From Bacillota bacterium (lineage in GTDB: Bacteria; Bacillota; Limnochordia; Darwinibacteriales; Darwinibacteriaceae): a DNA stretch of 64,000 nucleotides. Within the stretch, counting starts at the first letter, position 1; each line of letters opens with the position of its first letter. The notes under the pieces were generated by a model. The model was not told the DNA's origin and did not search any database. It was given only the letters and a program-made list of their open reading frames with translations. This document shows positions 2,816 through 35,460 of the stretch, in pieces. The stretch lies in NCBI GenBank assembly GCA_012838305.1, contig DUPN01000003.1, positions 29,335 to 93,334 of the forward strand. Reading direction: 5' to 3'. The position numbers and the translations under genes are program-made.

Positions 2816-3406
2816 GTGGTGGCGGCAGTCATCTACCTCGTTTTCCGTTCCTTCGTTCAACCTCCGCCGCCCCCTGTGGCTGTGCCCCCCAGTGTTCAGC
2901 TTCTAGAATCCAGGCTGATTGGGCGCCAGGACGGTGAGAGGCAGTGGGAGATTTTGGCGAAATCCGTGTTACAGACCGGTGATGTCGTGACCTTGACCGA
3001 TTTGGACGAGATCATCATGTTCCAGGATGGCGAACCCTATTTAGCGATTGACGCGGACAGAGCGATCTGGGATCGCACAAGAGATGTTTTGGAACTGCAA
3101 AACTCTGTGGTTGGCGATCTTGATGGAGGTTTTCGGCTAGAAAGTGATGTTCTGTTTTGGAATGGTACAGAGGAAACCCTCACATCGCCGGGTCCTGCTT
3201 TAATGCTGTGGGACGGCCTTGAGATCCGGGCCGCGGAAATGGTTTTGGAGTCAAAGGAGAATCTGCTGTATCTCAAAGGTGATGTGCAGATTCGGGACGG
3301 ATCCATGGCATGGATCGCAGAGCAGGCTGTCTATGACTTGGACCACGAACGTATGGATTTCTATGGGAGCTTGATTCTCAAACAGGAGGCAGAGGATGAT
3401 GAGTAG
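2816..3406 (+). CDS. lptC: LptC-like periplasmic LPS transport protein; start codon uncertain
   Basis: It has the size and position of LptC, between lptD and lptA, and overlaps lptA by 11 nt. The N-terminal hydrophobic anchor continues in frame upstream of the first canonical start (VLIALTVVAAVIYLVF), so a non-canonical start is possible. Confidence 0.45.
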   Translation: MVAAVIYLVFRSFVQPPPPPVAVPPSVQLLESRLIGRQDGERQWEILAKSVLQTGDVVTLTDLDEIIMFQDGEPYLAIDADRAIWDRTRDVLELQNSVVGDLDGGFRLESDVLFWNGTEETLTSPGPALMLWDGLEIRAAEMVLESKENLLYLKGDVQIRDGSMAWIAEQAVYDLDHERMDFYGSLILKQEAEDDE

Positions 3407-3962
3407 GAAGTTGGCAGCTTTGTTCATGCTTGCAGCTGTAGCCCTCGGGAGTTGTGGTGCGGTTGGGGCGCAAAGCCAGGTCGGGACGTTGGAAATCACG
3501 GGAGTTCCCCCAGAGATGTCCGCGGGACGCTATGATCGCCAGGCGGGAGTGTTTTTCGCCGATGTCCGTGAGATCCCAGGTGCTTTGATCACGGTCAAGC
3601 TGGAGGATGTCGAGGTAGTGGGGAAAACCCTGGAGTGGCGTACCGACGACAACTACTTGATCATGACCGTGGACGCTAGGCTCACCAAGGAAGACTTTAC
3701 GCTATCCGGCGATGTGGTGGAATACTTTGGTGAAACGAAGAGACTTGTGTCCGAGGGCCATGTGGAGGTGATGACGGAGGATGCCACCGTGTCTGCCGAT
3801 CATCTCGACTACGATGAAGAAACGGACCAAGCTCTGTTTACAGGTCAGGTAAAGGTGGTCTTTTCCGACGGGGTTCTCTCGGGTGAACGCTTCTTGATGC
3901 TGCTGGAGCAAAGCGAACTGCAGTTCTTTGGCTCCTTCCAAGGTGAGTTCAAGGACGAGTAG
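3396..3962 (+). CDS. lptA: LptA-like periplasmic LPS transport protein (OstA-N domain) with a signal peptide
   Basis: 188 aa with signal peptide MMSRKLAALFMLAAVALGSCGAVGA. It is beta-rich and lies downstream of lptC in the lpt cluster. Confidence 0.5.
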   Translation: MMSRKLAALFMLAAVALGSCGAVGAQSQVGTLEITGVPPEMSAGRYDRQAGVFFADVREIPGALITVKLEDVEVVGKTLEWRTDDNYLIMTVDARLTKEDFTLSGDVVEYFGETKRLVSEGHVEVMTEDATVSADHLDYDEETDQALFTGQVKVVFSDGVLSGERFLMLLEQSELQFFGSFQGEFKDE

Positions 3963-4022: not shown

Positions 4023-4031
4023 TGTTATAAT
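4023..4031 (+). promoter_or_regulatory. Extended -10 promoter element (TGtTATAAT) upstream of the permease/ATPase pair
   Basis: tgttataat lies about 28 nt upstream of the ATG at 4059, which has a GGTGAGGAGG RBS. No good -35 element is present. Confidence 0.3.
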
Positions 4032-4058
4032 GGAAGCGCTAGGTGAGGAGGCGAGGTC

Positions 4059-6161
4059 ATGCTCGTTTTTTTTCGAGACGGTTTTTATAAAGACCTGGTT
4101 CTTTTGCTGGTCGTAACCGTAATGATTGGCGCGGTGTTTTCCCAGGGTGTGGCCTGGGCTATTGACACCTATTTTGGTGACACCCTGGATGGAATGATCG
4201 GCGAATATGGTGAATACGATTTGATTCTGCATATACGTGATGAAGCTAAAGAAGCGGCCTTAAGGGAACTTGAACGCATCGGTGAGCAGTCCTTTCCGGG
4301 ATACAGACTCAACCAGACCTTAACCATTGCTGGACAGGCGAACTTCTTTATTGGGCTACCGGAGGACTATCGTACCAAGGAGGTATTGGAGAGCATTACC
4401 TCCTATTTTGGCGCGGTTCCAGGTATAAACGGATATACTTTAATGGTGGAACCCAGTGTTTTGCTGCGGGGCGTGCACCCTGCTGTCCGGGATGAGCTGA
4501 AGGAACAGCTAGAGGATCTAAGGGATGTTCGATTTGTGGTCCAGGACGGTGTCAATCTCGTGGTTGTTCTGACCCGAGAAGACGCTGTGAGCGGAGTTAC
4601 AGCGGCCATTGAAGACATTCTGCAGCAATATCAGATTGTAGAGTTGCGCTTCCCCATGGGCTTTGAGGTGGACACCCGAGAGGTTGGCGAGAAGGCCATG
4701 GCTATCCTGCGCTCCCAAGAAGGGATGGGCGGAACGTACCGCAATGTTACCTCTGCGGAGTACGGGGAAGACTTAGATGCCTTTTTGAAGACCCTCGTGG
4801 AAATGCGGGACTTTTTGGGCAGCTACGCTTCGCAGGTTCGCATCGCCCCGGCCCCCGGCGTCCGGCTTATGGTGGGGGAGTGGATCCTTTTGGAGGACGA
4901 TATTACCGTGGAGATCACAGGGGTGTTCGGAGATTTGGTGGAGGGCATGATTGTGGAAGGATCTCCTGTGCAATCCACAGACACCGTAGTGTATCAGGGT
5001 TTTCGCCGGCTGGCAGAAGGGGAGCAGGGCGAATTTGTGGGCGACGTGGAGATTGAAAACGAGCGCTACCGCCTAGCTTATGCGGTGGATGAGAGTTTGC
5101 GGCTCTTGGCTGAGCTGGAGGAGTTGTCGGTGCAGGCAAGTACCGCTGTGGACAACGCCGATGCGGTCTTGACCACCTTCCAGGAGGCTTTGATGCAGCT
5201 GGAAGTGCTGCAAGTGCAAATGCGCCAGCTCAATGAGGGCATAGCCACAGGCGAGGCCAAGTCTTCGGGGGAGCAGTTTCTAGTCAGCCTGCTTCTAAAT
5301 GGACTCTTCCAGACCTTAGCCCAGGGAGTTATTCATTCTGGGGAGGAGTCGTTGGATTCCCTGGAACACCTAGATATTGAAGCCATGCGCAACAGTCTGA
5401 GTGGAATCAGCGAGCAAATCGCCAATGTGCAGGAAATTGATGTGACTGCAATTATGGAGCAAATTGGCTTTGTCCGAGATACACTCCCCAATCTCAATGA
5501 CGCGGAAATCGGACAGTCTATCCGCCTGATCAACACCTATTTGGGGGGTCAGGTGATCCCCGGAGAGCGGGTACAGCTGCTCCTTGAGGGGGGTCGGGTG
5601 GATGAGAAGGCCTTGGAGAAGCTGTTTCAAAAAGAACTTGAAAACCCCTATCTGCACACCTATTCCACATCGGTGGGCATGGTGTCCCCCGATGCCAGGG
5701 GCGAGATTTTCCGCATTCTGAAAGAGGTTCGTTCCATTGTGGCCGGGATACTGTCCATCATCTTTACCGTCATGGTCCTGGTTTTGGACCATGCCACCAT
5801 CTTCAGCACCCTTAAGCATCTGCTGGCTTCCAGGAAGCCCCTGCGGTCCCTGTGGCGGCGTCTGCTGAATCCCATCCTGATCTTAGGGGGAACGCTCGGA
5901 GCCTTTCTTCTCACGAGTGTTTACTATCTGTCACGATCGCAGATTCCCTACTTCCAGTGGCCCGCCGTGGTGGTTTTAGGCTTTGTCCTGGGGGTGCTGA
6001 TTGTGGTCTTTGCCGAACGCTTCAGTCCGGTGGACAGTATGGAACTCATGGCCGCGCAGTCCCTAGGTCTCTCCAATTGTGAAATCATGCGGGAAGTGGT
6101 GATTCCCCCGAGTCGCCCGGGGCTAATGGTGATGCTCAATCGTTTCAAGAAGCAATTCTAG
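4059..6161 (+). CDS. Atypical ABC-transporter permease: an N-terminal TM helix, an ectodomain of about 530 aa with a coiled-coil segment, and a C-terminal 3-TM bundle ending in an EAA-loop-like motif
   Basis: The N-terminal TM is LVLLLVVTVMIGAVF. The large hydrophilic domain includes the coiled-coil stretch LRLLAELEELSVQ...LQVQMRQLNEG. Three C-terminal TMs are followed by MAAQSLGLSNCEIMREVVIPPSRPGLM, which resembles the EAA loop of type-I importer permeases (compare MetI EAAESMGASP..IPEALPAL in this same window). It is immediately followed by an ABC ATPase. Confidence 0.5.
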   Translation: MLVFFRDGFYKDLVLLLVVTVMIGAVFSQGVAWAIDTYFGDTLDGMIGEYGEYDLILHIRDEAKEAALRELERIGEQSFPGYRLNQTLTIAGQANFFIGLPEDYRTKEVLESITSYFGAVPGINGYTLMVEPSVLLRGVHPAVRDELKEQLEDLRDVRFVVQDGVNLVVVLTREDAVSGVTAAIEDILQQYQIVELRFPMGFEVDTREVGEKAMAILRSQEGMGGTYRNVTSAEYGEDLDAFLKTLVEMRDFLGSYASQVRIAPAPGVRLMVGEWILLEDDITVEITGVFGDLVEGMIVEGSPVQSTDTVVYQGFRRLAEGEQGEFVGDVEIENERYRLAYAVDESLRLLAELEELSVQASTAVDNADAVLTTFQEALMQLEVLQVQMRQLNEGIATGEAKSSGEQFLVSLLLNGLFQTLAQGVIHSGEESLDSLEHLDIEAMRNSLSGISEQIANVQEIDVTAIMEQIGFVRDTLPNLNDAEIGQSIRLINTYLGGQVIPGERVQLLLEGGRVDEKALEKLFQKELENPYLHTYSTSVGMVSPDARGEIFRILKEVRSIVAGILSIIFTVMVLVLDHATIFSTLKHLLASRKPLRSLWRRLLNPILILGGTLGAFLLTSVYYLSRSQIPYFQWPAVVVLGFVLGVLIVVFAERFSPVDSMELMAAQSLGLSNCEIMREVVIPPSRPGLMVMLNRFKKQF

Positions 6162-6173
6162 AGGAGTGTTCAT

Positions 6174-6902
6174 GTGCTGCAGATTCAGGGTTTACGCAAA
6201 TCGTATGGAAAACTCGTGGCACTTGATGGGGTAGACTTGACGGTAGAAAAGGGGGAGACTGTTGTGATCATGGGTCCGTCCGGCTGCGGCAAGTCTACCC
6301 TGATCCGTTGTGTCAATCGTTTAACTGAGCCCGATGAGGGTACCATCTTGCTGCAGGGGCAGAATGTATTGGAACTTGGCCACATCGAGCTCCAGGACCT
6401 CAGGCGCAAGGTTGGTTTTGTATTTCAGCAGTTCAACCTGATCAGTCGCCTCACGGTCTTGGATAATGTCATCTTCCACCTTGTCCTCGGGGGCATGGAC
6501 CGCGATCAGGCCGCGACCAGAGGGCGCAGGGTTTTGGCCCGGGTGGGCCTGGCCAATACGGAGGATCGCCGACCCCATGAGTTAAGCGGCGGTCAGCAGC
6601 AGAGGGTGGGCATTGCCAGGGCTTTGGTAACCAATCCCGAGATCATGCTTTGGGATGAACCCACAGCCTCTTTAGATCCGATCTTAGTGGGTGAGGTCCT
6701 GGAAGTGATGGAGGAGCTGGTGAAAACAACATCGACCACCATGGTCATCGTCACCCATGAGGTGTCCTTCGCCCTCAGGGCGGCGGAGCGTATTGTGTTT
6801 ATGGACAAGGGTCAAATCGTGGAAGAAGGACGGCCCCAGGAGGTCTTGGCCAATCCTCAATCCGAAATCGCCTGCCTGTACAGGAAACTTTTGGTGCAGT
6901 GA
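6174..6902 (+). CDS. ABC transporter ATP-binding protein (polar amino acid/phosphonate importer-type NBD)
   Basis: Walker A is GPSGCGKST, the ABC signature is LSGGQQQRVGIARAL, Walker B is MLWDEPTASLD and the H-loop is VTHE. It has a GTG start with a GAGGAG RBS. Confidence 0.8.
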   Translation: MLQIQGLRKSYGKLVALDGVDLTVEKGETVVIMGPSGCGKSTLIRCVNRLTEPDEGTILLQGQNVLELGHIELQDLRRKVGFVFQQFNLISRLTVLDNVIFHLVLGGMDRDQAATRGRRVLARVGLANTEDRRPHELSGGQQQRVGIARALVTNPEIMLWDEPTASLDPILVGEVLEVMEELVKTTSTTMVIVTHEVSFALRAAERIVFMDKGQIVEEGRPQEVLANPQSEIACLYRKLLVQ

Positions 6903-6995
6903 CGAGTTTGGGCGTCAAAAGAGGAAATGGAAACTCTGTGCCGAAAGTTGTATCAGCGCAGTTATGGCTTTCCTGGCCAAAAAGGAGTGAGACCT

Positions 6996-7451
6996 TTGTC
7001 AGAAGGACAGCTAGAAGAGCTCTCCATTGATCAGATTCGAAACCTCCTGCCCCATCGGTATCCTTTTTTGCTGGTGGATCGGGTCTTGGAGCGTGAAGAA
7101 GGTCACAGAGTTGTTGCTCTCAAGAATGTCACAATCAATGAGCCCTTCTTCCAGGGACATTATCCCCAAACTCCGGTGATGCCCGGGGTCCTCATCGTGG
7201 AGACCATGGCGCAGGTGGGGGGGTTGGCGGTGCAAGAAACGCCCCATGATCAGATCCTGCCCCTGCTTGCTGCCATTGAGAAGGTGCGTTTTCGCGAAGT
7301 GGTCAAGCCCGGCGATCAGCTGGTGGTTGAAGCTACCGTGAAGGCCAGCCGGGCAGGGATCGTGAAGATTGCAGCTGAAGCCAGAGTAGATGCAAAGGTT
7401 GTAGCTCAAGGCGAATTGACATTTGCCCTTGTGTCCAGGAGGGATAGTTAG
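6996..7451 (+). CDS. fabZ: 3-hydroxyacyl-ACP dehydratase FabZ
   Basis: The hotdog-fold motif is LPHRYPFLLVDRV...FFQGHYP..PVMPGVLIVETMAQ. The probable start is TTG at 6996 after an AAAGGAG RBS; the longer ORF from 6927 is unlikely. Confidence 0.85.
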   Translation: MSEGQLEELSIDQIRNLLPHRYPFLLVDRVLEREEGHRVVALKNVTINEPFFQGHYPQTPVMPGVLIVETMAQVGGLAVQETPHDQILPLLAAIEKVRFREVVKPGDQLVVEATVKASRAGIVKIAAEARVDAKVVAQGELTFALVSRRDS

Positions 7452-7454
7452 GCT

Positions 7455-8612
7455 ATGAGTAAGATCATGATGATTGGCGGAGACAACACCAGTGACCGTT
7501 TTGGTTCGGCTTTAGCCCGGAAGGTACTGGAGAAATGCCCCCAAGCGAAACTCTTTGGAGTGGGTGGACCCCTGATGAATGACGCCGGGGTACGCCTGCT
7601 TTATGATATCTCGGAACAGGTGAGTTTGGGGATTTTCCAATCTGTAAAGGGTTCTTTGGTGGTCAAACGTATGCTGAAGCGGATTGCAGAAGCCATGACC
7701 CAAGAGGAACCGTCTCTGGTGATGCAGATCGGCTTACCCGTCTTTGGTTACCGGCTCCTTGAGATTGCCCGGGGGAAAGGGATCCCTGTTTTGTATTATT
7801 ACACGCCTTTGAGCCGCGGTTTGCGCAATGTCAAGGCCAGCCACTTCCCTACGGTTGTGGATAAAGTGGCTGGTATAAGCCATTTTGAGGTGGCTCAGTG
7901 CCAAGAAGCGGGCCTGGATTGCGAGTTTGTGGGACACCCCTTGATGGACTTGACCGATTTCTCCATGACACCTCAGGAAGCCAGGGCGAAGCTTGGTATC
8001 GCTTCGGAAGAGACCCGGATTATTGCTGTTTTGCCTGGCGCCCGGGAAGTGGAAGTGCGCAACGCCCTGCCTAGCGTACTAAAGGCCCTGGATGAGGTGT
8101 TGGAGCGCCACGAGGATGTGCAGATTATTGTTTCCGCCGCTCCCACCATTCGCAGTGTACTCATGGATGAGATCTTAAAAAAATCGGCTCGAACAGTGCG
8201 CGTGGAGCGACATACCTACCTTGTGCTGCGATCGGCGGATGTGGCCGTCACCTCCATTGGTACAAGCTCTCTGGAGGCTTCTTTGCTGGGAGTCCCGTCG
8301 GTGGCTGTCTACCGTGTGCCCTGCACCACATATTTCACCGAGAAATTGCTGGATCGTAAGCCCAATATGACAATAACCAATAATGTCTTGCGAAAGAGTG
8401 TAATACCCGAGTTTATTCAGGGCGACTTTGTCCCCAGTAAGATCGCGCAGGCCATTGAGAACCTGCTCTATAATGAGCAGGCCAGACAGGCGATGCTGGC
8501 GGAGTTTGCCAGTCTTCCAGATCAGCTGGGTAAACCAGGTTCGCTGGAACGCGCTGCCGCTCTTGTGGTGGATATGGCTGGGTGTGACGACGATGACACA
8601 ATTAGTAGCTGA
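7455..8612 (+). CDS. lpxB: Lipid-A-disaccharide synthase LpxB
   Basis: The N-terminus MSKIMMIGGDNTSDRFGSALARKV...FGVGGPLM is a glycosyltransferase family 19 pattern. The 385 aa length fits, and it follows fabZ as in lipid A clusters. Confidence 0.8.
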   Translation: MSKIMMIGGDNTSDRFGSALARKVLEKCPQAKLFGVGGPLMNDAGVRLLYDISEQVSLGIFQSVKGSLVVKRMLKRIAEAMTQEEPSLVMQIGLPVFGYRLLEIARGKGIPVLYYYTPLSRGLRNVKASHFPTVVDKVAGISHFEVAQCQEAGLDCEFVGHPLMDLTDFSMTPQEARAKLGIASEETRIIAVLPGAREVEVRNALPSVLKALDEVLERHEDVQIIVSAAPTIRSVLMDEILKKSARTVRVERHTYLVLRSADVAVTSIGTSSLEASLLGVPSVAVYRVPCTTYFTEKLLDRKPNMTITNNVLRKSVIPEFIQGDFVPSKIAQAIENLLYNEQARQAMLAEFASLPDQLGKPGSLERAAALVVDMAGCDDDDTISS

Positions 8613-9318
8613 GAAGCTTGTGAAGGCCTATGGCCAGCGTACGGTGGTTCAGAATGTGGATTTTGAGGCGAGCCGCGGAGAAATTGTGGGTCTTTTGGGA
8701 CCCAATGGCGCGGGGAAAACAACAACCTTCGGTTTGATTATTGGCCTGGGTAAGCCCAAGAGCGGACGCATTTTCCTGGATGGCCGCGATATTACGGAGC
8801 TGCCCATGCACAAGCGTACCCGTCTCGGTCTGGGCTACCTGCCGCAGGAGCCGTCGGTATTTCGCAAGCTGACTGTGGAAGAGAATGTGCAGGGAGTGCT
8901 CGAACTGCGTCGAGACGTATCCCGGGACGAGCAGGCGCATCGTCTAGCCGATCTGATGGAGGAGTTCAACTTACGTGAGGTGCGGCATCAAAAGGGTTAC
9001 CAGTTGTCCGGGGGCGAGCGTCGCCGTACTGAAATAGCCAGGGCACTGGCTCTAGATCCCGCTTTTTTGTTTCTGGACGAACCTTTCGCGGGGGTCGATC
9101 CCATTGCAGTGGCGGAGATTCAGGCCATCATTGCCCGCCTGCGCTCACGGAACTTAGGCATTATTATTACAGATCATAATGTCAGAGAGACACTGCGGAT
9201 TACCGATCGGGCCTATATTATGCATCTGGGGGAGATTCTTGTTTCCGGCTCCACGGAGGATTTGGCCCAAAACCCACTGGCCCGCAAGTATTACCTCGGA
9301 GCCAATTTCTCTCTGTAA
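8593..9318 (+). CDS. lptB: LPS export ABC transporter ATP-binding protein LptB
   Basis: It begins MTQLVAEKLVKAYGQRTVV. Walker A is GPNGAGKTT and the signature is LSGGERRRTEIARAL. The true ATG at 8593 overlaps the end of lpxB; the upstream part of the 8428 ORF is spurious. Confidence 0.75.
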   Translation: MTQLVAEKLVKAYGQRTVVQNVDFEASRGEIVGLLGPNGAGKTTTFGLIIGLGKPKSGRIFLDGRDITELPMHKRTRLGLGYLPQEPSVFRKLTVEENVQGVLELRRDVSRDEQAHRLADLMEEFNLREVRHQKGYQLSGGERRRTEIARALALDPAFLFLDEPFAGVDPIAVAEIQAIIARLRSRNLGIIITDHNVRETLRITDRAYIMHLGEILVSGSTEDLAQNPLARKYYLGANFSL

Positions 9319-9329
9319 GGAAAGAAGGT

Positions 9330-10463
9330 GTGCAGGCCATGTATGGTTTTACCCTTATCTTGACCTTGGTCATTGTCGGCGGGGTGATTGCCTACATTGG
9401 CGATCGCTTGGGAATGCACGTTGGCCGTAAAAAGCTAACGTTATTTGGTCTGCGCCCCAAACATACCAGTATTGTAGTGACAATTGTCACAGGTATCCTT
9501 ATTTCCGCCGCGTCCATCGGCGTTTTATCCATCGGTTCGTCTGATGTGCGCACTGCTCTTTTCAATATGAAGGCAATCCAAGATGAGCTGCGAGGGATCC
9601 AGCGTGACTATGTGGTCATGAAGGGTCAGAGGGATGCAGCTCAAGTCGAGTTGGAGCAGGTCGAGGCGAGCTATCAGGAGATTACAGCTCTCCTTTTGGA
9701 AGCGGAGTCTACAGTGGATGCCCTGCAGAGACAGGCTGTGGTCCTCACGGAGGAAGTGGAAGAACTGGAGGCCAGAACCGAGCAGCTGCGGTCATCCTAC
9801 GCCCTCCTGGAAGAGAACTACGACCTTGTGGCCACGGCCTGGGGCCAGATTCGGGCGGGGAACATTGCCTTTAACGCCAGCGAAGTCATTTTGACCACTG
9901 TGATCAGAAAGGGTCTTGGCCGGGAGGAGGTCCGTGCCCACCTCGAGCGTTTCATGGAGGAAGTGGATGATGTGGCTTACCTTCGCAGTGCCAGAGCCCC
10001 AGAATCCGACACCTACAGGGCCATTTTTCTGCAGCCGGGTGTGCTAGATATGGCGGTGGAATCGGTCCTCTTGTCTCCAGGGGATGTCATCGTCCGGGCG
10101 GTAAGCGAGGGCAATAGTATTCCTGGGGTGCCGGTCTTGGTATACTTAGAGAATTTCCGCGATCAGATGGTCTTTTCCCAGGGAACTGTGTTGGCCTCCA
10201 GCCGGTGGGATCCTAGGGAAGGGATGGAGATTGATCGTGTGATCCTGCTCATGCTCAATGAAGCGCACAGCAATGCCATTAATGCCGGCATGGCCATCAG
10301 CCGGGAGCGGGGAGATGCAGTCTTACTTCCCGGTGACAGTTTCCGCGATGCTATCTTTGCCTCCAGAGACATTGAAGAATCCGTGGAAGTGCGGCTGGTG
10401 GTGGCCGAAGATACCTGGCGTTCGGAAACACCTGTTGAATTGTATCTCGAACTGGTTTTCTAA
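9330..10463 (+). CDS. Membrane-anchored coiled-coil protein, DUF3084-like
   Basis: It has an N-terminal TM (FTLILTLVIVGGVIAYIG), a long coiled coil (QDELRGIQRDY...LEEN) and a C-terminal globular region. The architecture matches DUF3084; the family assignment is from memory, not a search. Confidence 0.4.
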   Translation: MQAMYGFTLILTLVIVGGVIAYIGDRLGMHVGRKKLTLFGLRPKHTSIVVTIVTGILISAASIGVLSIGSSDVRTALFNMKAIQDELRGIQRDYVVMKGQRDAAQVELEQVEASYQEITALLLEAESTVDALQRQAVVLTEEVEELEARTEQLRSSYALLEENYDLVATAWGQIRAGNIAFNASEVILTTVIRKGLGREEVRAHLERFMEEVDDVAYLRSARAPESDTYRAIFLQPGVLDMAVESVLLSPGDVIVRAVSEGNSIPGVPVLVYLENFRDQMVFSQGTVLASSRWDPREGMEIDRVILLMLNEAHSNAINAGMAISRERGDAVLLPGDSFRDAIFASRDIEESVEVRLVVAEDTWRSETPVELYLELVF

Positions 10464-10848: not shown

Positions 10849-13038
10849 ATGAATATGAAAATGAAGAAGCTTGCTTTAGTACTAGTCGTTGTTTTGATGG
10901 CTAGTGCAGCAATGCCCGCAATGGCCAGCCCATTCGCAGATGTTCCTGCTGATCACTGGGCCTATGATTCCGTAGCGGAATTGGCTGCTGCAGGTTTGAT
11001 TGAAGGATATCCAGATGGAACCTATGGCGGTTCCAGAATGATGACTCGTTACGAAGCTGCTATGGTATTTGCCAGAGCGCTCAATCGTCTCGAGAGTCAA
11101 ATCGCCAACAACAACCTTCTACCAGAGCTTGACAAGATCAAGGCTGAACTCATGGCTGAGATTGAAGCACAGATGGCTGCTGCTGACAAGCCTGTTGTAG
11201 AAACCATTGAAACCAAGGTAATTGAGCAGCGCATCGATGAACAAGCACTTGCTCGCATCCGTGCCAACGAGATCGCCATCGACGCACTCGAAGGCGACAT
11301 GGCCTACCTGGAAGCCAGAATGCTTGGTTTGATTGATGGCATTCGCTTCGACATGAACCAACTCGAAGAGCAACAGGTAACAGGTGTAGAACCACCTTCC
11401 ATGGATGAAATCGAAGCTTTGATTGCTGCTAGAATCCAAGAAAGCCTTTTGGATGTTGCCAGCGGCGTTAAAGAGACCACCATCGTGGAGAGGGTTGTTT
11501 CCACCACTCCTGAGATGACCAAGCAAGATGTGGAGTTCATCGCCGAAGCACTCATCCGTGAGCAGGTTCAAGGTGTTGAGCGCAAAGTTCAAGAGAACAG
11601 AGACCTCATCGTTGGCCTCGTTGACTGGGTTGATGAGCTTGACGCAGATGTGACCGTTCTCAAAGACGATGTTGCAGGTTTGAAGGCATCTGTTGCTGAT
11701 CTGGAGAAAGCCCCCAGACTCAGCGGTGACTTAACTCTGAAGGGTGAATACAAGCTGCCAGATGGCGCTGACGAGAAAGAATATGTTCTCACCCAGACCG
11801 GTGCTCTTACACTGGGCATCAAGGCCTCTGACACCACCAATGTTAAGGCTATTTTGGGATTCAAGGTTGCTGCAGGTAGCCTGGTAGACGAATTAACAAA
11901 CTACCGCGTGGAAGTGGATTCTACCACACCCATCAGCAAAGTGGTTGTAGGGAAAATTGCTAAGGGTAATCTCTCTCCCTACGTCGACCGTTACGTCCTT
12001 GCCTCCAACGACCATGCCTTTGGCGGACTGGGCAAGATCAACATTATGGATGATCTGACACTGGATCTCTTTGTTGGTCAGAAAGCTGTTGGAGCACATG
12101 AGAATATGCAGGCTGCAGCGGCGCTGCAGTACAAGTTCATCCCTGAACTTGGTCTGAGACTGTCCGGTGCTCTCCAGAAACCAACCGGTGAGATGTTTGT
12201 GAACTATGCAGCTGGTATCGGCCTCTTTGGTGAAGTAGCCGGTGTTACCTATGCTGGTGACTTTGCCATGGACTTCAATGCAGATGAGAAAAACTTCATC
12301 GGCGTTCTTGAGGCCGAAACAACCTTGGATCCTGTGACCCTTGATCTGAAGGGAATCTACCAGGGAGAAAACTACGCCATCAGAAACCTGCTAGTTAACA
12401 CCGATAATGCCTTTGCTGTTGAAGGCGGCCTCAAGGCTGGTCTCAAAGATCTGCTCGGTTTCGATGCCAACCTCGGCGGTCGTGCCTACTATGAAGGTGC
12501 CATTGGTGCAGAGGAAGGAGATCCTGATACCTCGATTATAGCCTTCAAGCTGGATGCAGACGCAACCTTTGATGTATTCGTACCTGTGACCATTGAAGGT
12601 CGCTTCGTAGGTAACATCACCGGCGGCGCAGACATGGAAAGCAATATCTTTGCCAAGTTGTCCGCTGCACAGAAGGGCGACTACGGACTTCGCTACGGTG
12701 CATATGCTTCCTACGAGAAGAATGTCCTGACGGATGTTAAGTGGAAAGATGTTGCTAAGTTTACAGGTAACGACGATGCGAAGTTTGGTGCTAATGTAGG
12801 TTATGGTGTCGACTGGAGCGGTGCGAAAGTTGACCTCGACTACAATGCTGACTTTGTATTGCCAATCGTACCCGAAGGCGATCCAGAGAGAGACATGACC
12901 CTCACCAACAAACTGGTTGTTGGCTACGGCTTTACCAACAATGTCAAGCTCACCTTTGGTGCGAGTGTCAAGTCAACGTTCAGCGATCCTCTCGCCAACC
13001 GCTTCTTCTACGATGCAGGTTTGACAGTTAAGTTCTAA
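10849..13038 (+). CDS. ompM: OmpM-type outer-membrane porin with an N-terminal SLH domain, a coiled-coil stalk and a C-terminal beta-barrel
   Basis: It has a signal peptide and the SLH motif FADVPADHWAYDSVAELAAAGLIEGYPDGTYGG..MTRYEAAMVFARAL. A coiled-coil region of about 200 aa is followed by an alternating amphipathic beta-strand region that ends with a terminal Phe (LTVKF). Confidence 0.85.
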   Translation: MNMKMKKLALVLVVVLMASAAMPAMASPFADVPADHWAYDSVAELAAAGLIEGYPDGTYGGSRMMTRYEAAMVFARALNRLESQIANNNLLPELDKIKAELMAEIEAQMAAADKPVVETIETKVIEQRIDEQALARIRANEIAIDALEGDMAYLEARMLGLIDGIRFDMNQLEEQQVTGVEPPSMDEIEALIAARIQESLLDVASGVKETTIVERVVSTTPEMTKQDVEFIAEALIREQVQGVERKVQENRDLIVGLVDWVDELDADVTVLKDDVAGLKASVADLEKAPRLSGDLTLKGEYKLPDGADEKEYVLTQTGALTLGIKASDTTNVKAILGFKVAAGSLVDELTNYRVEVDSTTPISKVVVGKIAKGNLSPYVDRYVLASNDHAFGGLGKINIMDDLTLDLFVGQKAVGAHENMQAAAALQYKFIPELGLRLSGALQKPTGEMFVNYAAGIGLFGEVAGVTYAGDFAMDFNADEKNFIGVLEAETTLDPVTLDLKGIYQGENYAIRNLLVNTDNAFAVEGGLKAGLKDLLGFDANLGGRAYYEGAIGAEEGDPDTSIIAFKLDADATFDVFVPVTIEGRFVGNITGGADMESNIFAKLSAAQKGDYGLRYGAYASYEKNVLTDVKWKDVAKFTGNDDAKFGANVGYGVDWSGAKVDLDYNADFVLPIVPEGDPERDMTLTNKLVVGYGFTNNVKLTFGASVKSTFSDPLANRFFYDAGLTVKF

Positions 13039-13133: not shown

Positions 13134-13529
13134 GTGGTGAGTCAGGTGATCGTTTTGGGAATCGATCCGGGACGTGAAAAATGCGGTTTAGCTGTGGTTT
13201 CCCCTAATCTGGTGCTGGTGAAGCGAGTGGTGGCCCGGGGAGAATTCTTGGATTTGGCCCGCGAGTATATTCGACAGTATAATGTGGCTAGAATCGTTCT
13301 TGGCGATGGAACGGGATCGAAGGATTTTCTTCAGGAGATAGAAGGGGTTTTACCCGTGGTCACAGTTGATGAGCAATATACCACGGAAGAGGCAAGAAAA
13401 AGATATTGGCTTGACCACCGTCCCAAGGGATGGAGACGCTTTTTGCCCACGAGTATGCAGGTGCCGCCGGAGCCCTTCGATGACTATGTCGCCGTGATCC
13501 TGGCGGAACGGTATTTATCCGAGATCTAA
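13134..13529 (+). CDS. YqgF/RuvX-like (RNase H-fold) putative Holliday-junction resolvase or pre-16S rRNA nuclease family protein
   Basis: VLGIDPGREKCGLAV aligns with the YqgF motif ILGLDLGTKTLGVA, RIVLGDGTG with IVLGFP, and DEQYTTEEA with DERLTT. The 131 aa length fits the family. Confidence 0.5.
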   Translation: MVSQVIVLGIDPGREKCGLAVVSPNLVLVKRVVARGEFLDLAREYIRQYNVARIVLGDGTGSKDFLQEIEGVLPVVTVDEQYTTEEARKRYWLDHRPKGWRRFLPTSMQVPPEPFDDYVAVILAERYLSEI

Positions 13530-13634: not shown

Positions 13635-14891
13635 ATGCACAGAAGTCTACGGTTTGCTGCGGTTTTCTGTATGCTTTTGCTGCTTAGTCATGGTGTTTTG
13701 GCCAACTCTCCTTCAGGCTCATCCCTGCTGTCACAGGACTGGGCCGATCTGGCCATTGAAGAATTGGGAAGGGATCGGGGAATACCTGATTTTGACATTC
13801 CTGCCCAGCCCAACCGGAATCAAAGGGCTCTTTTGGTCGCCCGTCTTCTGCAGCATTTGAGCGGCGAGGATCATCTCCAATCGCGCCGCTTCGGCGTGAG
13901 CAAGAATGTTTATTTGGACAATATGATCTTCACCTACAATCAGCGAGTGGTACCTGAGATGGCCCTCACCGTAAGCCAAGTGGAGGCCCTTTACAGGCTG
14001 GTCTTGGAGTTCAGCGACGAGCTGGAGATCTTAGGCTATGCCATCCAGGACTTCAACCTCCTCCAGTCCGAGGGATTTGTGGAGCAGCAGGAAGGCCTGT
14101 TTGCCAACCGCAACCTGCTCTATTCTGAACAGGCGCTGTCCGCCGCCCGCAAGCGTGACGAACAGCGAACGGCTGTGCAGAGCGTTGAGGTGGTTGCTGC
14201 ACCTGAAACAAGCATTGCCGAGATCATTCCTGAACCTGTTCGACCCCGCAACCTCTGGACGGGCCAGTTTTCTCCTGTGACCCGCACGCTGCCGCCGTCT
14301 TCAAGTATTGTGGCTCAAGAATCCCTGGCGGAACAGAGTCGACCCCTTTCCCTTGGGGGCTTTGAAGTCACAACCGCATTGCGGCCTGCCCCTTCCGGAA
14401 GTCAGAGTAGTATAGAGAGCTCGAGTTCCAGTACAGCCGAAGGAGGTGGCTATGGTATTGCGCTGCGCATGGGCGATGTGGCCTTGCGCACAGATCTGGC
14501 TCTGAATCCCGAGAAGGTGAGCACATCCGTCGATTTGAGCTGGGCATGGGCGGATCTTTTTACACTGAGCGCGGGTTACAGGCAGGGCCTCAGACTCAAG
14601 GAGGACGCGGAGTCCGAGGACGAAGCCCCCGTTGTTGCTTCTCTGGGAGTGGTGGTCCCCCTCAATCGGGGACAGGTACATTTAGGCATGACCCAGGAGT
14701 GGAATTTTGCAGATCTAGAAGGAAATCCCATGCGCCCTGGTGAACTAGGTATGGGTACCAGTACTGCCGAGCTTGGGTTGAGCTATGACCTCAAAAACGA
14801 CAGTTCGCTGCGGTTTAACTACCGATTCATTGACTTTAGCAATATGGAATCAGGCACGGAAGCGGAAGCCGCTTTTTCTATCAAGTTTTGA
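13635..14891 (+). CDS. Putative outer-membrane beta-barrel protein with a degenerate N-terminal SLH-like segment (an OmpM paralog?)
   Basis: It has a signal peptide and an SLH-like stretch (DWADLAIEELGRDRGIPDFDIP...RALLVARLL). The C-terminal beta-rich region ends in a terminal Phe (FSIKF), and there is a GAGGAGGAG RBS. Confidence 0.45.
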   Translation: MHRSLRFAAVFCMLLLLSHGVLANSPSGSSLLSQDWADLAIEELGRDRGIPDFDIPAQPNRNQRALLVARLLQHLSGEDHLQSRRFGVSKNVYLDNMIFTYNQRVVPEMALTVSQVEALYRLVLEFSDELEILGYAIQDFNLLQSEGFVEQQEGLFANRNLLYSEQALSAARKRDEQRTAVQSVEVVAAPETSIAEIIPEPVRPRNLWTGQFSPVTRTLPPSSSIVAQESLAEQSRPLSLGGFEVTTALRPAPSGSQSSIESSSSSTAEGGGYGIALRMGDVALRTDLALNPEKVSTSVDLSWAWADLFTLSAGYRQGLRLKEDAESEDEAPVVASLGVVVPLNRGQVHLGMTQEWNFADLEGNPMRPGELGMGTSTAELGLSYDLKNDSSLRFNYRFIDFSNMESGTEAEAAFSIKF

Positions 14892-26265: not shown

Positions 26266-26392
26266 GAATAGGCTCATCAAGAGTGGCGGAGGGACTGGCC
26301 CAATGAAGCCCGGCAACCAGTGGAATGCTTTTTCACCAGGTGCTAATTCCTGCAAAGCTACTGTTCGGTAGTTTTGGCCGATGAGGGTGGAT
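26266..26392 (+). promoter_or_regulatory. SAM-I (S-box) riboswitch aptamer upstream of metK
   Basis: CTCATCAAGAGTGGCGGAGGGACTGGCCCAATGAAGCCCGGCAACC ... GGTGCTAATTCCTGCAAAG ... GATGAG (the P1 3' strand) matches the S-box consensus. Confidence 0.8.
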
Positions 26393-33603: not shown

Positions 33604-34263
33604 CTATTGTCGATGATAGAGTCTTTGGGCGATTTTATCGCCCAGCATTTGGATTCCTTGCACCAAAAGCACCAAAATGACAACGGTTTGCAGCATGATA
33701 TCGCCACGAAAACGTTGGTAGCCATAACGGATGGCCAGATCTCCGAGGCCGCCTCCGCCAATGGCCCCAGCCATGGCCGAATAACCAACAAGGTTGACGG
33801 CGGTAAGGGTTACAGCCAAAATGAGTGCAGGTAAGGCTTCCGGGATCATCACCTTAAAGATTATCACTGGGGGTGAAGCCCCCATGCTTTCCGCAGCCTC
33901 AATTACACCCGGGTCAATTTCTTTGAATGCCCCGTCGATCAGTCGGGCCACAAAGGGGATAGCAGCCACTGTCAAGGGTACTACGGCTGCCGTGGTACCG
34001 ATGGAGCTGCCCACAAGGAGACGGGTAAAGGGAATGATCGCCACCATTAGAATGATAAAGGGGACGGAGCGGCCGATGTTGACGATGCCCCCTAAGGCGC
34101 GGTGTACGAGGGGTTGCTCTAGGATGTGCTTGGGCGCCGTTGTGGCCAGCAAAATTCCTAGCGGCAAGCCCAGGACAGTGGCCAGGGCTGTGCCTAGGCC
34201 CACCATGGTCAAGGTGTCTAGAGTGGCAGTCCAGAGCATAGAGAGCATGACTGGATTGATCAT
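33604..34263 (-). CDS. metI: Methionine ABC transporter permease MetI
   Basis: It has five TMs and the EAA loop EAAESMGASPPVIIFKVMIPEALPALILAV. Confidence 0.85.
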   Translation of the reverse strand: MINPVMLSMLWTATLDTLTMVGLGTALATVLGLPLGILLATTAPKHILEQPLVHRALGGIVNIGRSVPFIILMVAIIPFTRLLVGSSIGTTAAVVPLTVAAIPFVARLIDGAFKEIDPGVIEAAESMGASPPVIIFKVMIPEALPALILAVTLTAVNLVGYSAMAGAIGGGGLGDLAIRYGYQRFRGDIMLQTVVILVLLVQGIQMLGDKIAQRLYHRQ

Positions 34264-35267
34264 GGGCTAAGCACCTCCACTTCCACTTGGTTTTTCTGCA
34301 GGAACTGCACGGCCTCGGTTACCTGCTCCCTTGTCCCATCAAGCTCCACCAGCAGCATGCCGAAGGGTGTTGTCTTCATCTGGTCGATGCGGCCGTAGAG
34401 GATGTTCACATCCAGATCATGGGTCCGAATCATCTGGGAGATAATGGGCTGATGAGCCCGTTGATCGATAAAGGTCAGGCGCACGAGGGTGTTGGCCGAT
34501 CCCTTGCTTCTGAGTTCTGCGGGGAGTTTGCTGCCGTGCAATCCCTGCAGCATGTTTGCAGTCGCTTGAGACTGAGGACGGGTAAAGACGTCAATCACCC
34601 GGCCTGTTTCACGCAGCACGCCGTCCTCGAGGACCGCTACATGATCGCAGATCTGTTGAATCACCGCCATTTCATGGGTGATTAAGACGATGGTAAGACC
34701 GAGATTCTCGTTGATGGTCCGCAGCAGACTGAGCACCGATCTTGTGGTCTCAGGATCCAGAGCCGAAGTGGCTTCGTCGCAGAGCAAAAGCTTCGGTTCG
34801 GTGGCCAAAGCCCGAGCGATGCCAACCCTCTGTTTTTGTCCTCCGCTCAGCTGCCTGGGATAGGTCTGCAGTTTATCGGTTAGCCCCACCAGCTCCGCCA
34901 GCTGGCCCACTCTGCTTCGCACCTTGTCCTTGGAGACCCCTGCCAGCTCCAGGGGAAAGGCGATGTTCTGGAATACGGTGCGGGAGCTTAAGAGGTTGAA
35001 ATGTTGAAAGATCATTCCCGTCTCTTTGCGGGCCTGCCGCAGCTCTTTAGGGCTGAGGCGATTCATGAGAATCCCATCCACCCAGACTTCGCCGGAGTCG
35101 GGGCGTTCTAACATGTTGATGCAGCGGATCAGGGTTGACTTACCTGCGCCGCTTTGCCCAATTACCCCGAAAATCCCTCCCGCCGGAATTTTGAGGCTAA
35201 CCCCTTTGAGGGCGTGAACGGTGTTTTTTCCTGTGAAGGTCTTTGTCACGTCCTTGAACTCAATCAC
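34260..35267 (-). CDS. metN: Methionine ABC transporter ATP-binding protein MetN
   Basis: Walker A is GQSGAGKSTL and the signature is LSGGQKQRVGIARAL, with a C-terminal NIL/ACT-like domain. The probable start is the GTG of MIEFKDV after AAGGAGAG; the listed ORF is longer and runs into the riboswitch. Confidence 0.85.
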   Translation of the reverse strand: MIEFKDVTKTFTGKNTVHALKGVSLKIPAGGIFGVIGQSGAGKSTLIRCINMLERPDSGEVWVDGILMNRLSPKELRQARKETGMIFQHFNLLSSRTVFQNIAFPLELAGVSKDKVRSRVGQLAELVGLTDKLQTYPRQLSGGQKQRVGIARALATEPKLLLCDEATSALDPETTRSVLSLLRTINENLGLTIVLITHEMAVIQQICDHVAVLEDGVLRETGRVIDVFTRPQSQATANMLQGLHGSKLPAELRSKGSANTLVRLTFIDQRAHQPIISQMIRTHDLDVNILYGRIDQMKTTPFGMLLVELDGTREQVTEAVQFLQKNQVEVEVLSP

Positions 35268-35284
35268 ATGGGTCTCTCCTTTAC

Positions 35285-35316
35285 ACAAAAAACCTCTTCC
35301 TGAAAGAAGAGGTTTC
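35285..35316 (-). terminator. Expression-platform terminator of the metNIQ SAM riboswitch
   Basis: On the minus strand it reads GAAACCTCTTC-TTTCAG-GAAGAGGTTTTTTGTG, directly upstream of the metN RBS. Confidence 0.6.
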
Positions 35317-35339
35317 TCGATACCTGAATAGAAAACGCC

Positions 35340-35460
35340 TCTCCTCTCATCTCTCTGAACACCTGGTTCAGCTGGAATTGGCACCTTGTGCAAGAAATGA
35401 CTTGCACTGGTTGCCGGGCTTCATAGGGCCAGTCCCTCCGCCTCTCTGGATAAGAGCAGT
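35340..35460 (-). promoter_or_regulatory. SAM-I (S-box) riboswitch aptamer upstream of metNIQ
   Basis: The minus strand reads CTCTTATCCAGAGAGGCGGAGGGACTGGCCCTATGAAGCCCGGCAACC...GGTGCCAATTCCAGC...GATGAGAG. Confidence 0.8.

Follow-up and report, generated by a model that had tools for sequence, protein, structure and literature searches.

The 64-kb window analyzed here, that is, the whole 64,000-nucleotide stretch of contig DUPN01000003.1 from a Bacillota bacterium of the class Limnochordia, carries a gene pair between an lptA-like gene and a fabZ-lpxB-lptB block, in the midst of genes for lipopolysaccharide (LPS) transport and lipid A synthesis. The first gene encodes a membrane protein of 700 amino acids (aa), the membrane subunit, and the second encodes an ATP-binding cassette (ABC) ATPase. 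The features of the pair, with transmembrane segments abbreviated as TM, open reading frames as ORF, and AlphaFold2 as AF2, are as follows.

4023..4031, + strand: extended -10 promoter-like motif TGTTATAAT, within the 96 nt that separate lptA from the membrane-subunit gene
4045..4051, + strand: Shine-Dalgarno-like GAGGAGG, 7 nt 5' of the ATG at 4059, read from the sequence
4059..6161, + strand: membrane-subunit gene, ORF of 700 aa, ATG start
4095..4163, + strand: TM1, residues 13-35, by hydropathy; the AF2 helix 9-47 extends into the periplasm
4164..5723, + strand: predicted periplasmic domain, residues 36-555, with juxtamembrane motif, modules, barrel, and hairpin
5724..6014, + strand: TM2-TM4, residues 556-652, by hydropathy, alignments, and conservation
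6015..6140, + strand: putative cytoplasmic EAA-type coupling tail, residues 653-694, by conservation and hhalign against MetI
6161..6166, + strand: GAGGAG ribosome-binding site, overlapping the TAG that ends the membrane-subunit ORF, 8 nt 5' of the GTG of the ATPase gene, read from the sequence
6174..6902, + strand: ABC ATPase gene, ORF of 242 aa, GTG start

The overlap of the second ribosome-binding site with the stop codon of the first gene suggests that the two genes are tightly coupled. The motif TGTTATAAT lies 28 nt from the membrane-subunit ATG and is the sole TGNTATAAT across the window, where 0.73 would be expected by chance. Since a consensus scan found no -35 element, we treat it as a motif and a putative promoter only; the first-pass annotation had assigned the pair an extended -10 promoter of its own.

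The membrane subunit had no match in Pfam-A (E ≤ 0.01, full length), NCBIfam, or the PDB sequences. A Bacillota metagenome-assembled genome (MAG) encodes the same protein at 100% identity on a 2.9-Mb contig, under the label "hypothetical protein." A word-indexed search with the 700-aa protein recovered 111 homologues, and an exhaustive search with a profile among 1.84 billion cluster representatives found 240 clusters (50% identity) at E ≤ 1e-3, including 148 at E ≤ 1e-30; a third search with a diverse alignment added hardly any new members. Because full-length homologues, 570-1000 aa long, extend down to approximately 21% identity, the ORF at 4059-6161 is no chance product. The source records name the members "hypothetical protein" or sometimes "ABC transporter permease," with a few plainly wrong labels. 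All members bearing names are Bacillota, from the Limnochordia, Sporomusaceae, and Halobacteroidaceae. The Limnochordia members are MAGs; complete genomes are available for members from Sporomusa ovata, S. acidovorans, S. rhizae, S. malonica, and S. aerivorans, as well as from Anaerospora, Lucifera, Pelosinus, and Dendrosporobacter, and the Halanaerobiales are represented by Orenia metallireducens and Halanaerobaculum tunisiense. The related loci described below were collected by scanning genomes with two peptide patterns (27-sequence alignment), and absence from a taxon, e.g., the Veillonellaceae, Selenomonadaceae, or other phyla, cannot be inferred from them.

Hydropathy analysis of the membrane subunit revealed four hydrophobic segments, at approximately residues 13-35, 560-582, 604-624, and 635-652. 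The stretch that follows TM1 contains no K/R and six D/E residues, while the loop between TM2 and TM3 contains six K/R and no D/E. Hydropathy and this charge bias together place the N-terminus inside, an ectodomain of approximately 520 aa outside, and three further TM helices ahead of a cytoplasmic C-terminus, and the helices of the AF2 models are consistent with this four-TM topology. The AF2 model of the full protein was built from a 27-sequence alignment, with a predicted local distance difference test (pLDDT) score of 71 and a predicted template modeling (pTM) score of 0.42; a model of the membrane domain reached a pLDDT of 73. Within the TM2-TM4 region, D577 is invariant in the family, and the cytoplasmic TM2-TM3 loop is positively charged and variable in length in alignments.

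The C-terminal tail connects this protein to the type I importer permeases. The sequence MAAQSLGLSNCEIMREVVIPPSRPGLM, residues 664-690, fits the register EAA-x3-G-x9-I-x-L-P, with the motif at 664-683, and the protein terminates 10 residues past the EAA motif, a feature that holds family-wide. Among 54 diverse members, residues 653-694 form the most conserved region of the family (2.82 bits per column) and the TM2-TM3 cytoplasmic loop the least conserved (1.04 bits per column); the motif was kept in 87 of 94 long representatives. When compared by BLASTP with the MetI protein encoded in the same window, the tail gave 13/36 identities (E 3e-4), and this MetI was also the first non-family match among 4,900 ORFs from the window and the relatives' loci. 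When the family profile was searched against PDB sequences, PotC and MetI ranked first, and in both it was the loop that aligned (E 0.026 and 0.16). The clearest result came from hhalign: a 54-sequence C-terminal profile matched a 17-sequence MetI alignment in register over 38 columns, with 95% probability and an E value of 4e-8, compared to 0.4% probability for the reversed control. The Pfam family BPD_transp_1 (PF00528) was not matched by the full-length protein; the C-terminal fragment matched it below threshold (19.2 bits versus the 26.4 required, covering positions 13-112 of the 184-position profile), as did 12 of 18 members, the best of them at E 2.6e-4. At the level of sequence, the resemblance of the tail to type I permeases is statistically real.

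The partner is, by its sequence motifs, an ABC ATPase with intact catalytic elements: it matched PF00005 (E 6e-41) and contains the Walker A motif GPSGCGKST, Q-loop FQQFNL, signature LSGGQQQRV, Walker B-E MLWDEPTASLD, and H-loop VTHE. Its best NCBIfam matches were GlnQ (252 bits) and TcyN (251 bits), along with ProV, EhuA, PhnC, ArtP, PstB, HisP, and MetN, all below equivalog cutoffs, and FtsE (191 bits) and LolD (179 bits) scored below GlnQ and TcyN. The nearest solved relatives are nucleotide-binding domains (NBDs) of polar-amino-acid importers (4u00, 4yms_J, ArtP, and HisP), while MacB, LolD, FtsE, and LptB were absent from the top 60 PDB matches. Family scores and PDB relatives, rather than a phylogeny, thus type the ATPase as one of the polar-amino-acid-importer kind. 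The ATPase gene lies directly 3' of the membrane-subunit gene, on the same strand and at a distance of 14-205 nt, in all 79 loci with enough downstream sequence. In addition, six representatives at 50% identity (930-1000 aa) are natural fusions of the two proteins, in which the EAA-like motif is followed by a linker of 35-47 aa and then an NBD 45-50% identical to the ATPase of the window. These fusions (P0213, P0215, P0219, P0238, P0244, and P0256, as well as L086 10001-12961) come from high-GC uncultured Bacillota, and their motif reads AARAxG, which is nearer the canonical EAA motif.

Altogether, these results bear out what the first-pass annotation had read from the letters: a 700-aa protein between lptA and fabZ-lpxB-lptB, with one N-terminal TM segment, a huge ectodomain, and three C-terminal TM segments; a C-terminal EAA-like loop comparable to that of MetI; and an importer-type GlnQ/PhnC-like NBD. 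Its reading of the permease as EAA-like rather than of the FtsX/MacB type was likewise supported. Neither FtsX (PF02687) nor MacB_PCD (PF12704) was matched, whether by the full-length protein at E ≤ 0.01 or by four fragments at E ≤ 10, NCBIfam gave no such match, and conservation is lowest in the TM2-TM3 loop and highest in the EAA tail.

In the AF2 model, the ectodomain is predicted to be composed of several modules. A long stalk helix that continues TM1 precedes two ferredoxin-like beta-alpha-beta-beta-alpha-beta modules (residues 55-128 and 133-197), followed by a beta-barrel of six strands (259-333), a helical hairpin (335-457) whose tip is of low confidence, a further beta-alpha-beta-beta module (504-543), and a 45-residue helix that enters TM2. 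The two hairpin helices, residues 335-396 and 403-457, account for the coiled-coil segment noted earlier in the ectodomain. The periplasmic domain also carries a conserved juxtamembrane motif, YF..T....GEYGEYD, and LP.L.DEEIG.S is a second conserved motif of the juxtamembrane kind. Fold searches with the ectodomain returned ferredoxin-like and Porter-like modules, beta-barrels of the F1-ATPase and eIF2-gamma types, and coiled coils together with the hairpins of adaptor proteins (LipC 8.1, EmrA 7.5); the hairpin matches were mostly generic coiled coil. Alignments showed that the length of the hairpin depends on lineage, with insertions of tens of residues and up to approximately 130 in the longest members. 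A check of the ectodomain fold had been proposed with substrate-binding-protein, MacB-like, and MlaD/LolA-like folds as candidates. The fold searches found no substrate-binding-protein, LolA, MlaD/MCE, or OstA fold, the predicted folds included no canonical MacB fold, and the ectodomain matched no substrate-binding-protein family in Pfam.

The neighbors of the pair in the window, assigned with Pfam and NCBIfam, all lie outside the pair itself.

30-617: C-terminus of lptF/G, upstream
632-2776, + strand: lptD-like gene, upstream
2816-3406, + strand: lptC, upstream
3396-3962, + strand: lptA-like gene, immediately 5' of the pair
6927..9318, + strand: fabZ, lpxB, and lptB block, immediately 3' of the pair
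6927-7451, + strand: FabZ, as the longest ORF
7455-8612, + strand: LpxB

LptB, downstream of LpxB, matched TIGR04406 with 349 bits, and further 3' of it the window encodes a DUF3084 protein and an SLH/OmpM-like protein. Placement of the pair within outer-membrane/LPS clusters is conserved across three diderm Firmicute lineages. In the Limnochordia, the gene order is bamA-skp-skp-yjbH-x-lptF/G-lptD-like-lptC-lptA-pair-fabZ-lpxB-lptB-DUF3084-ompM. The order in Orenia is lpxD-yjbH-S8 peptidase-lptF-lptG-894 aa protein-lptC-lptA-pair-lpxC-fabZ-lpxA-lpxI-lpxB-msbA-...-lpxK-kdsB, and that in the Sporomusaceae is tamB-...-bamA-skp-lpxD-yjbH-lpxL-pair-lpxC-fabZ-lpxA-lpxI-lpxB-msbA-waaA-lpxK, with the pair flanked by an LpxL-like acyltransferase gene and lpxC. 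Among the 73 loci from the Limnochordia and Sporomusaceae that span 12 kb or more, 61 contain at least three lpt, lpx, bamA, or msbA genes, and the fused variant sits in the same slot 3' of lptA. A random insertion, which absence of the pair from the lpt loci of relatives would have indicated, is not what these clusters show. No binding-protein gene was found beside the pair in the window or in the Pfam-labeled loci of relatives, and no conserved candidate for a partner gene was identified other than the Lpt/Lpx genes.

Several genes recur with the pair in these clusters. A YjbH-domain gene of approximately 210 aa is conserved in the Limnochordia, Sporomusaceae, and Orenia clusters (L003/L004 3900-4547, L001 8226-8858, and L085 456-1094), and a YjbH-domain protein has been predicted to form an outer-membrane beta-barrel (PMC13018214). 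The gene for the DUF3084 protein, a coiled-coil membrane protein (9330-10463, + strand, PF11283 E 2e-31), is found 3' of lptB in nearly all Limnochordia loci. In Sporomusa rhizae DSM 16652, a second copy of the pair outside the LPS cluster (L072 5617-9825) lies directly 3' of genes for a TetR regulator, an HlyD-type adaptor, and an AcrB-type resistance-nodulation-division (RND) pump. The lead to a tripartite pump given by this operon was dropped, as such an arrangement is absent at the other 12 second-copy loci examined.

In published accounts, Negativicutes have neither the Lol pathway nor LptE or MlaA/C, and most of TAM is missing as well (PMC5007114; PMC13018214; PMC10665443). The consulted part of the eLife 2016 cluster analysis lists COG0816, DUF3084, and an RseP-like protease as conserved genes of unknown function and reports LolA as absent from Negativicutes and LolA with LolCDE as present in Halanaerobiales; that part contained no mention of the gene pair (PMC5007114). 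A 2026 study of Acetonema longum reported the absence of Lol and LptE and named the neighboring LpxL (F7NM16) and YjbH (F7NM17), but not the gene pair (PMC13018214). Halanaerobiales are reported to lack Mla, which occurs in just a few Limnochordia (PMC10665443).

Compared to the type VII systems (MacB, LolCDE, FtsEX, and YbbAP), the pair shares four TM segments per subunit, a large periplasmic domain between TM1 and TM2, and cytoplasmic termini, together with long stalk helices, an ATPase that is either separate or fused, Porter-like alpha/beta modules detected in the ectodomain, and a cell-envelope role, the last taken from gene neighborhood. The type VII features used for this comparison, including the C-terminal helix that contacts the NBD in MacB and would parallel the putative coupling tail of the pair, are those described in PMC5985334. 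However, the major coupling helix of type VII systems resides in the TM2-TM3 loop, which is unconserved in the pair, and coupling appears, from the conservation pattern, to run via the C-terminal EAA-type tail instead. The ATPase also groups with polar-amino-acid importers rather than with MacB, LolD, or FtsE, and the ectodomain is far larger than in type VII proteins, with the addition of a beta-barrel and a helical hairpin of approximately 120 residues. With the type I permeases (MetI, PotC, ArtQ, and HisM), the membrane subunit shares the EAA coupling loop in register, and the ATPase is of the same type as GlnQ, ArtP, and HisP. Unlike those permeases, the subunit lacks the two TM helices after the loop and has an extra N-terminal TM segment and a 520-aa ectodomain; no binding protein accompanies the pair, its Pfam score is below threshold, and its TM helices gave no confident alignment. 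A type I core has at least five TM segments, two of them after the EAA loop, whereas this subunit has four in total.

Other envelope systems resemble the pair in parts. Periplasmic adaptors, or membrane fusion proteins (MacA, EmrA, and LipC), and polysaccharide co-polymerases (Wzz and Wzc) differ in domain order, and here the corresponding module lies inside an ABC membrane subunit; the 700-aa protein had no HlyD or Wzz match in Pfam. LptB2FG-C and MlaFEDB are encoded among the same genes and are likewise ABC-driven with periplasmic extensions, and the pair probably belongs to the same process as these envelope lipid systems. It was rejected as a component of either, as searches of the 700-aa protein with Pfam, NCBIfam, and fold comparison found no LptF/G match, OstA/LptC beta-jellyroll, or MCE domain. 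Because FtsX is not matched, the loop between TM2 and TM3 is unconserved, and the ATPase is of another group, we file the pair outside type VII, and because it has no post-loop helices, binding protein, or threshold Pfam match, we file it outside type I. We accordingly class it as a variant ABC system of its own.

We favor the reading that the pair is a MacB-like mechanotransducer built from importer-type parts, which serves outer-membrane/LPS biogenesis and is self-contained and specific to double-membraned Bacillota; we give it a probability of roughly 55%. The complex would contain the membrane subunit and the ATPase in two copies each. The EAA tail is the kind of sequence by which type I permeases grip their ATPase, and ATP-driven closure of the ATPase dimer would pull on the two tails, with the movement relayed via TM4/TM2 and on through the long TM1/TM2 stalks into the periplasmic domains. 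The machine would therefore do its work in the periplasm and not across the membrane, by mechanotransmission as in MacB, LolCDE, and FtsEX; the two post-EAA helices, which form part of the pathway lining in importers, are absent. There, the periplasmic domains would act on an envelope lipid species or a partner protein, and the helical hairpin would reach toward the wall or the outer membrane. On gene neighborhood only, the most likely role is extraction or handing over of an envelope lipid species toward the outer membrane, be it LPS/lipid A, phospholipid, or lipoprotein; the same neighborhood is the one basis that suggests the Lol- or Mla-like lipid role proposed in the first-pass annotation.

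A number of observations weigh against this reading. The AF2 models are of moderate confidence only, both for the full protein and for the membrane domain, and similarity to type I permeases is limited to the 38-residue loop, with no confident alignment of the TM helices. The eight TM segments of a dimer may form a transmembrane pathway after all. Twelve Sporomusaceae loci are second copies that lie outside LPS clusters in variable surroundings, with only the ATPase gene conserved around them, and thus not every family member is tied to LPS genes. Finally, the reported presence of LolA and LolCDE in Halanaerobiales (PMC5007114) argues against a simple replacement of Lol.

Two of the rival explanations keep the mechanical logic of the pair and change its ancestry or its target. 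The pair might be a divergent but true member of type VII (FtsX/MacB/LolCE) in which the C-terminal "minor coupling helix" has become the main coupler and the EAA-like sequence is convergent. The identical topology, from TM1 through the periplasmic domain to TM2-TM4 with both ends cytoplasmic, speaks for this idea, and so does the contact between the C-terminal helix and the NBD in MacB (PMC5985334). It is nevertheless unlikely, since FtsX and MacB_PCD were not matched even at E values up to 10 on fragments, the loop that holds the type VII major coupling helix is the least conserved part of the family, and the ATPase is nearer to GlnQ/ArtP/HisP than to FtsE/LolD (252 versus 191 and 179 bits). 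Alternatively, the pair could be a mechanotransducer that moves no lipid at all and, in the way FtsEX acts on EnvC, activates or positions another protein of the periplasm or outer membrane, which could be a wall hydrolase, an enzyme that modifies LPS, or the LptD-like translocon. Four TM segments plus an ectodomain are common to FtsEX, the hairpin differs in length by lineage, and a position in the lpt operon would suit an Lpt accessory. As no conserved candidate gene emerged beyond the Lpt/Lpx genes, the Sporomusaceae second copies keep the ATPase as their sole neighbor, and the hairpin matches are generic coiled coil, we consider partner activation also improbable, and slightly more so than type VII descent.

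The remaining two rivals take the importer features at face value. Fusion of a substrate-binding protein to a reduced permease would make the pair a type I importer, in agreement with its EAA loop and importer-type ATPase. We regard this as very improbable: the protein ends 10 residues past the EAA motif, without the two post-loop helices found in every type I permease, the ectodomain has neither a substrate-binding-protein fold nor a matching Pfam family, and the conserved neighbors serve LPS and outer-membrane biogenesis rather than catabolism or uptake. A truncated or decaying permease gene, or an artefact of gene calling, would explain why the BPD_transp_1 match spans only positions 13-112 of the 184-position profile. 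Conservation effectively refutes this explanation, given that the full-length architecture recurs in approximately 240 clusters down to approximately 21% identity, the C-terminal motif is kept in 87/94 long representatives, 79/79 loci have the ATPase gene 14-205 nt further on, and fusions to the ATPase exist. 

Other features of the window were recorded alongside the pair. FabZ homology begins at approximately residue 32 of the longest ORF (start 6927), and a TTG near 6996 with AAGGAG before it is the likely true fabZ start, which would leave a gap of approximately 90 nt after the ATPase gene (window 6903-6996). The protein in the lptD position (714 aa, 632-2776, + strand) matched LptD_N/LptD weakly (E 1e-4 to 3e-3) and scored 47 bits against a cutoff of 683 for the NCBIfam LptD model, and no obvious lptE-like gene was found in the window; the weak LptD and the lack of an obvious lptE fit the picture of LptD without LptE reported for Acetonema. 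Beyond the DUF3084 gene lie an SLH-domain coiled-coil OmpM-like protein (729 aa, 10849-13038, + strand, ending in ...TVKF) and, after it, a 418-aa protein with a beta-barrel-type end, ...SIKF (13635-14891, + strand); both are probably outer-membrane proteins. Between them is a small ORF (13134-13529, + strand), whose equivalent in a relative, located after the SLH protein, gave only a faint match to RuvX (COG0816 type). The window also contains two S-adenosylmethionine (SAM) riboswitches (RF00162), at 35344-35456 (- strand) and 26271-26387 (+ strand), with 97 and 74 bits, respectively. The former lies ahead of the metN-metI-metQ operon and runs into the longest ORF for metN (34260-35393), which places the true metN start further downstream.

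For the construction of the outer membrane in two-membrane Firmicutes, the pair described here, which is conserved, unannotated, ATP-driven, equipped with a large periplasmic arm, and located amid lpt/lpx genes, is a concrete candidate machine for a missing envelope step. The combination of an importer-type coupling loop and ATPase with the MacB-like layout of four helices and a big ectodomain is covered by no current ABC class and suggests more than one origin for mechanotransducers. In a more far-reaching and distinctly tentative version, to which we give low confidence, the pair would found a new class of ABC membrane domain, a type I half-permease that works with its ATPase as a mechanotransducer and supplies an assembly step for the outer membrane that otherwise seems to be missing from double-membraned Firmicutes. 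This step may be Lol-independent extraction of lipoproteins or anterograde hand-over of lipid or LPS across the periplasm, the latter possibly including the rebuilding of the outer membrane at spore germination. The family has members in cultured strains with complete genomes, among them Sporomusa ovata DSM 2662, S. acidovorans DSM 3132, and Orenia metallireducens, which makes experiments on the role of the pair feasible.

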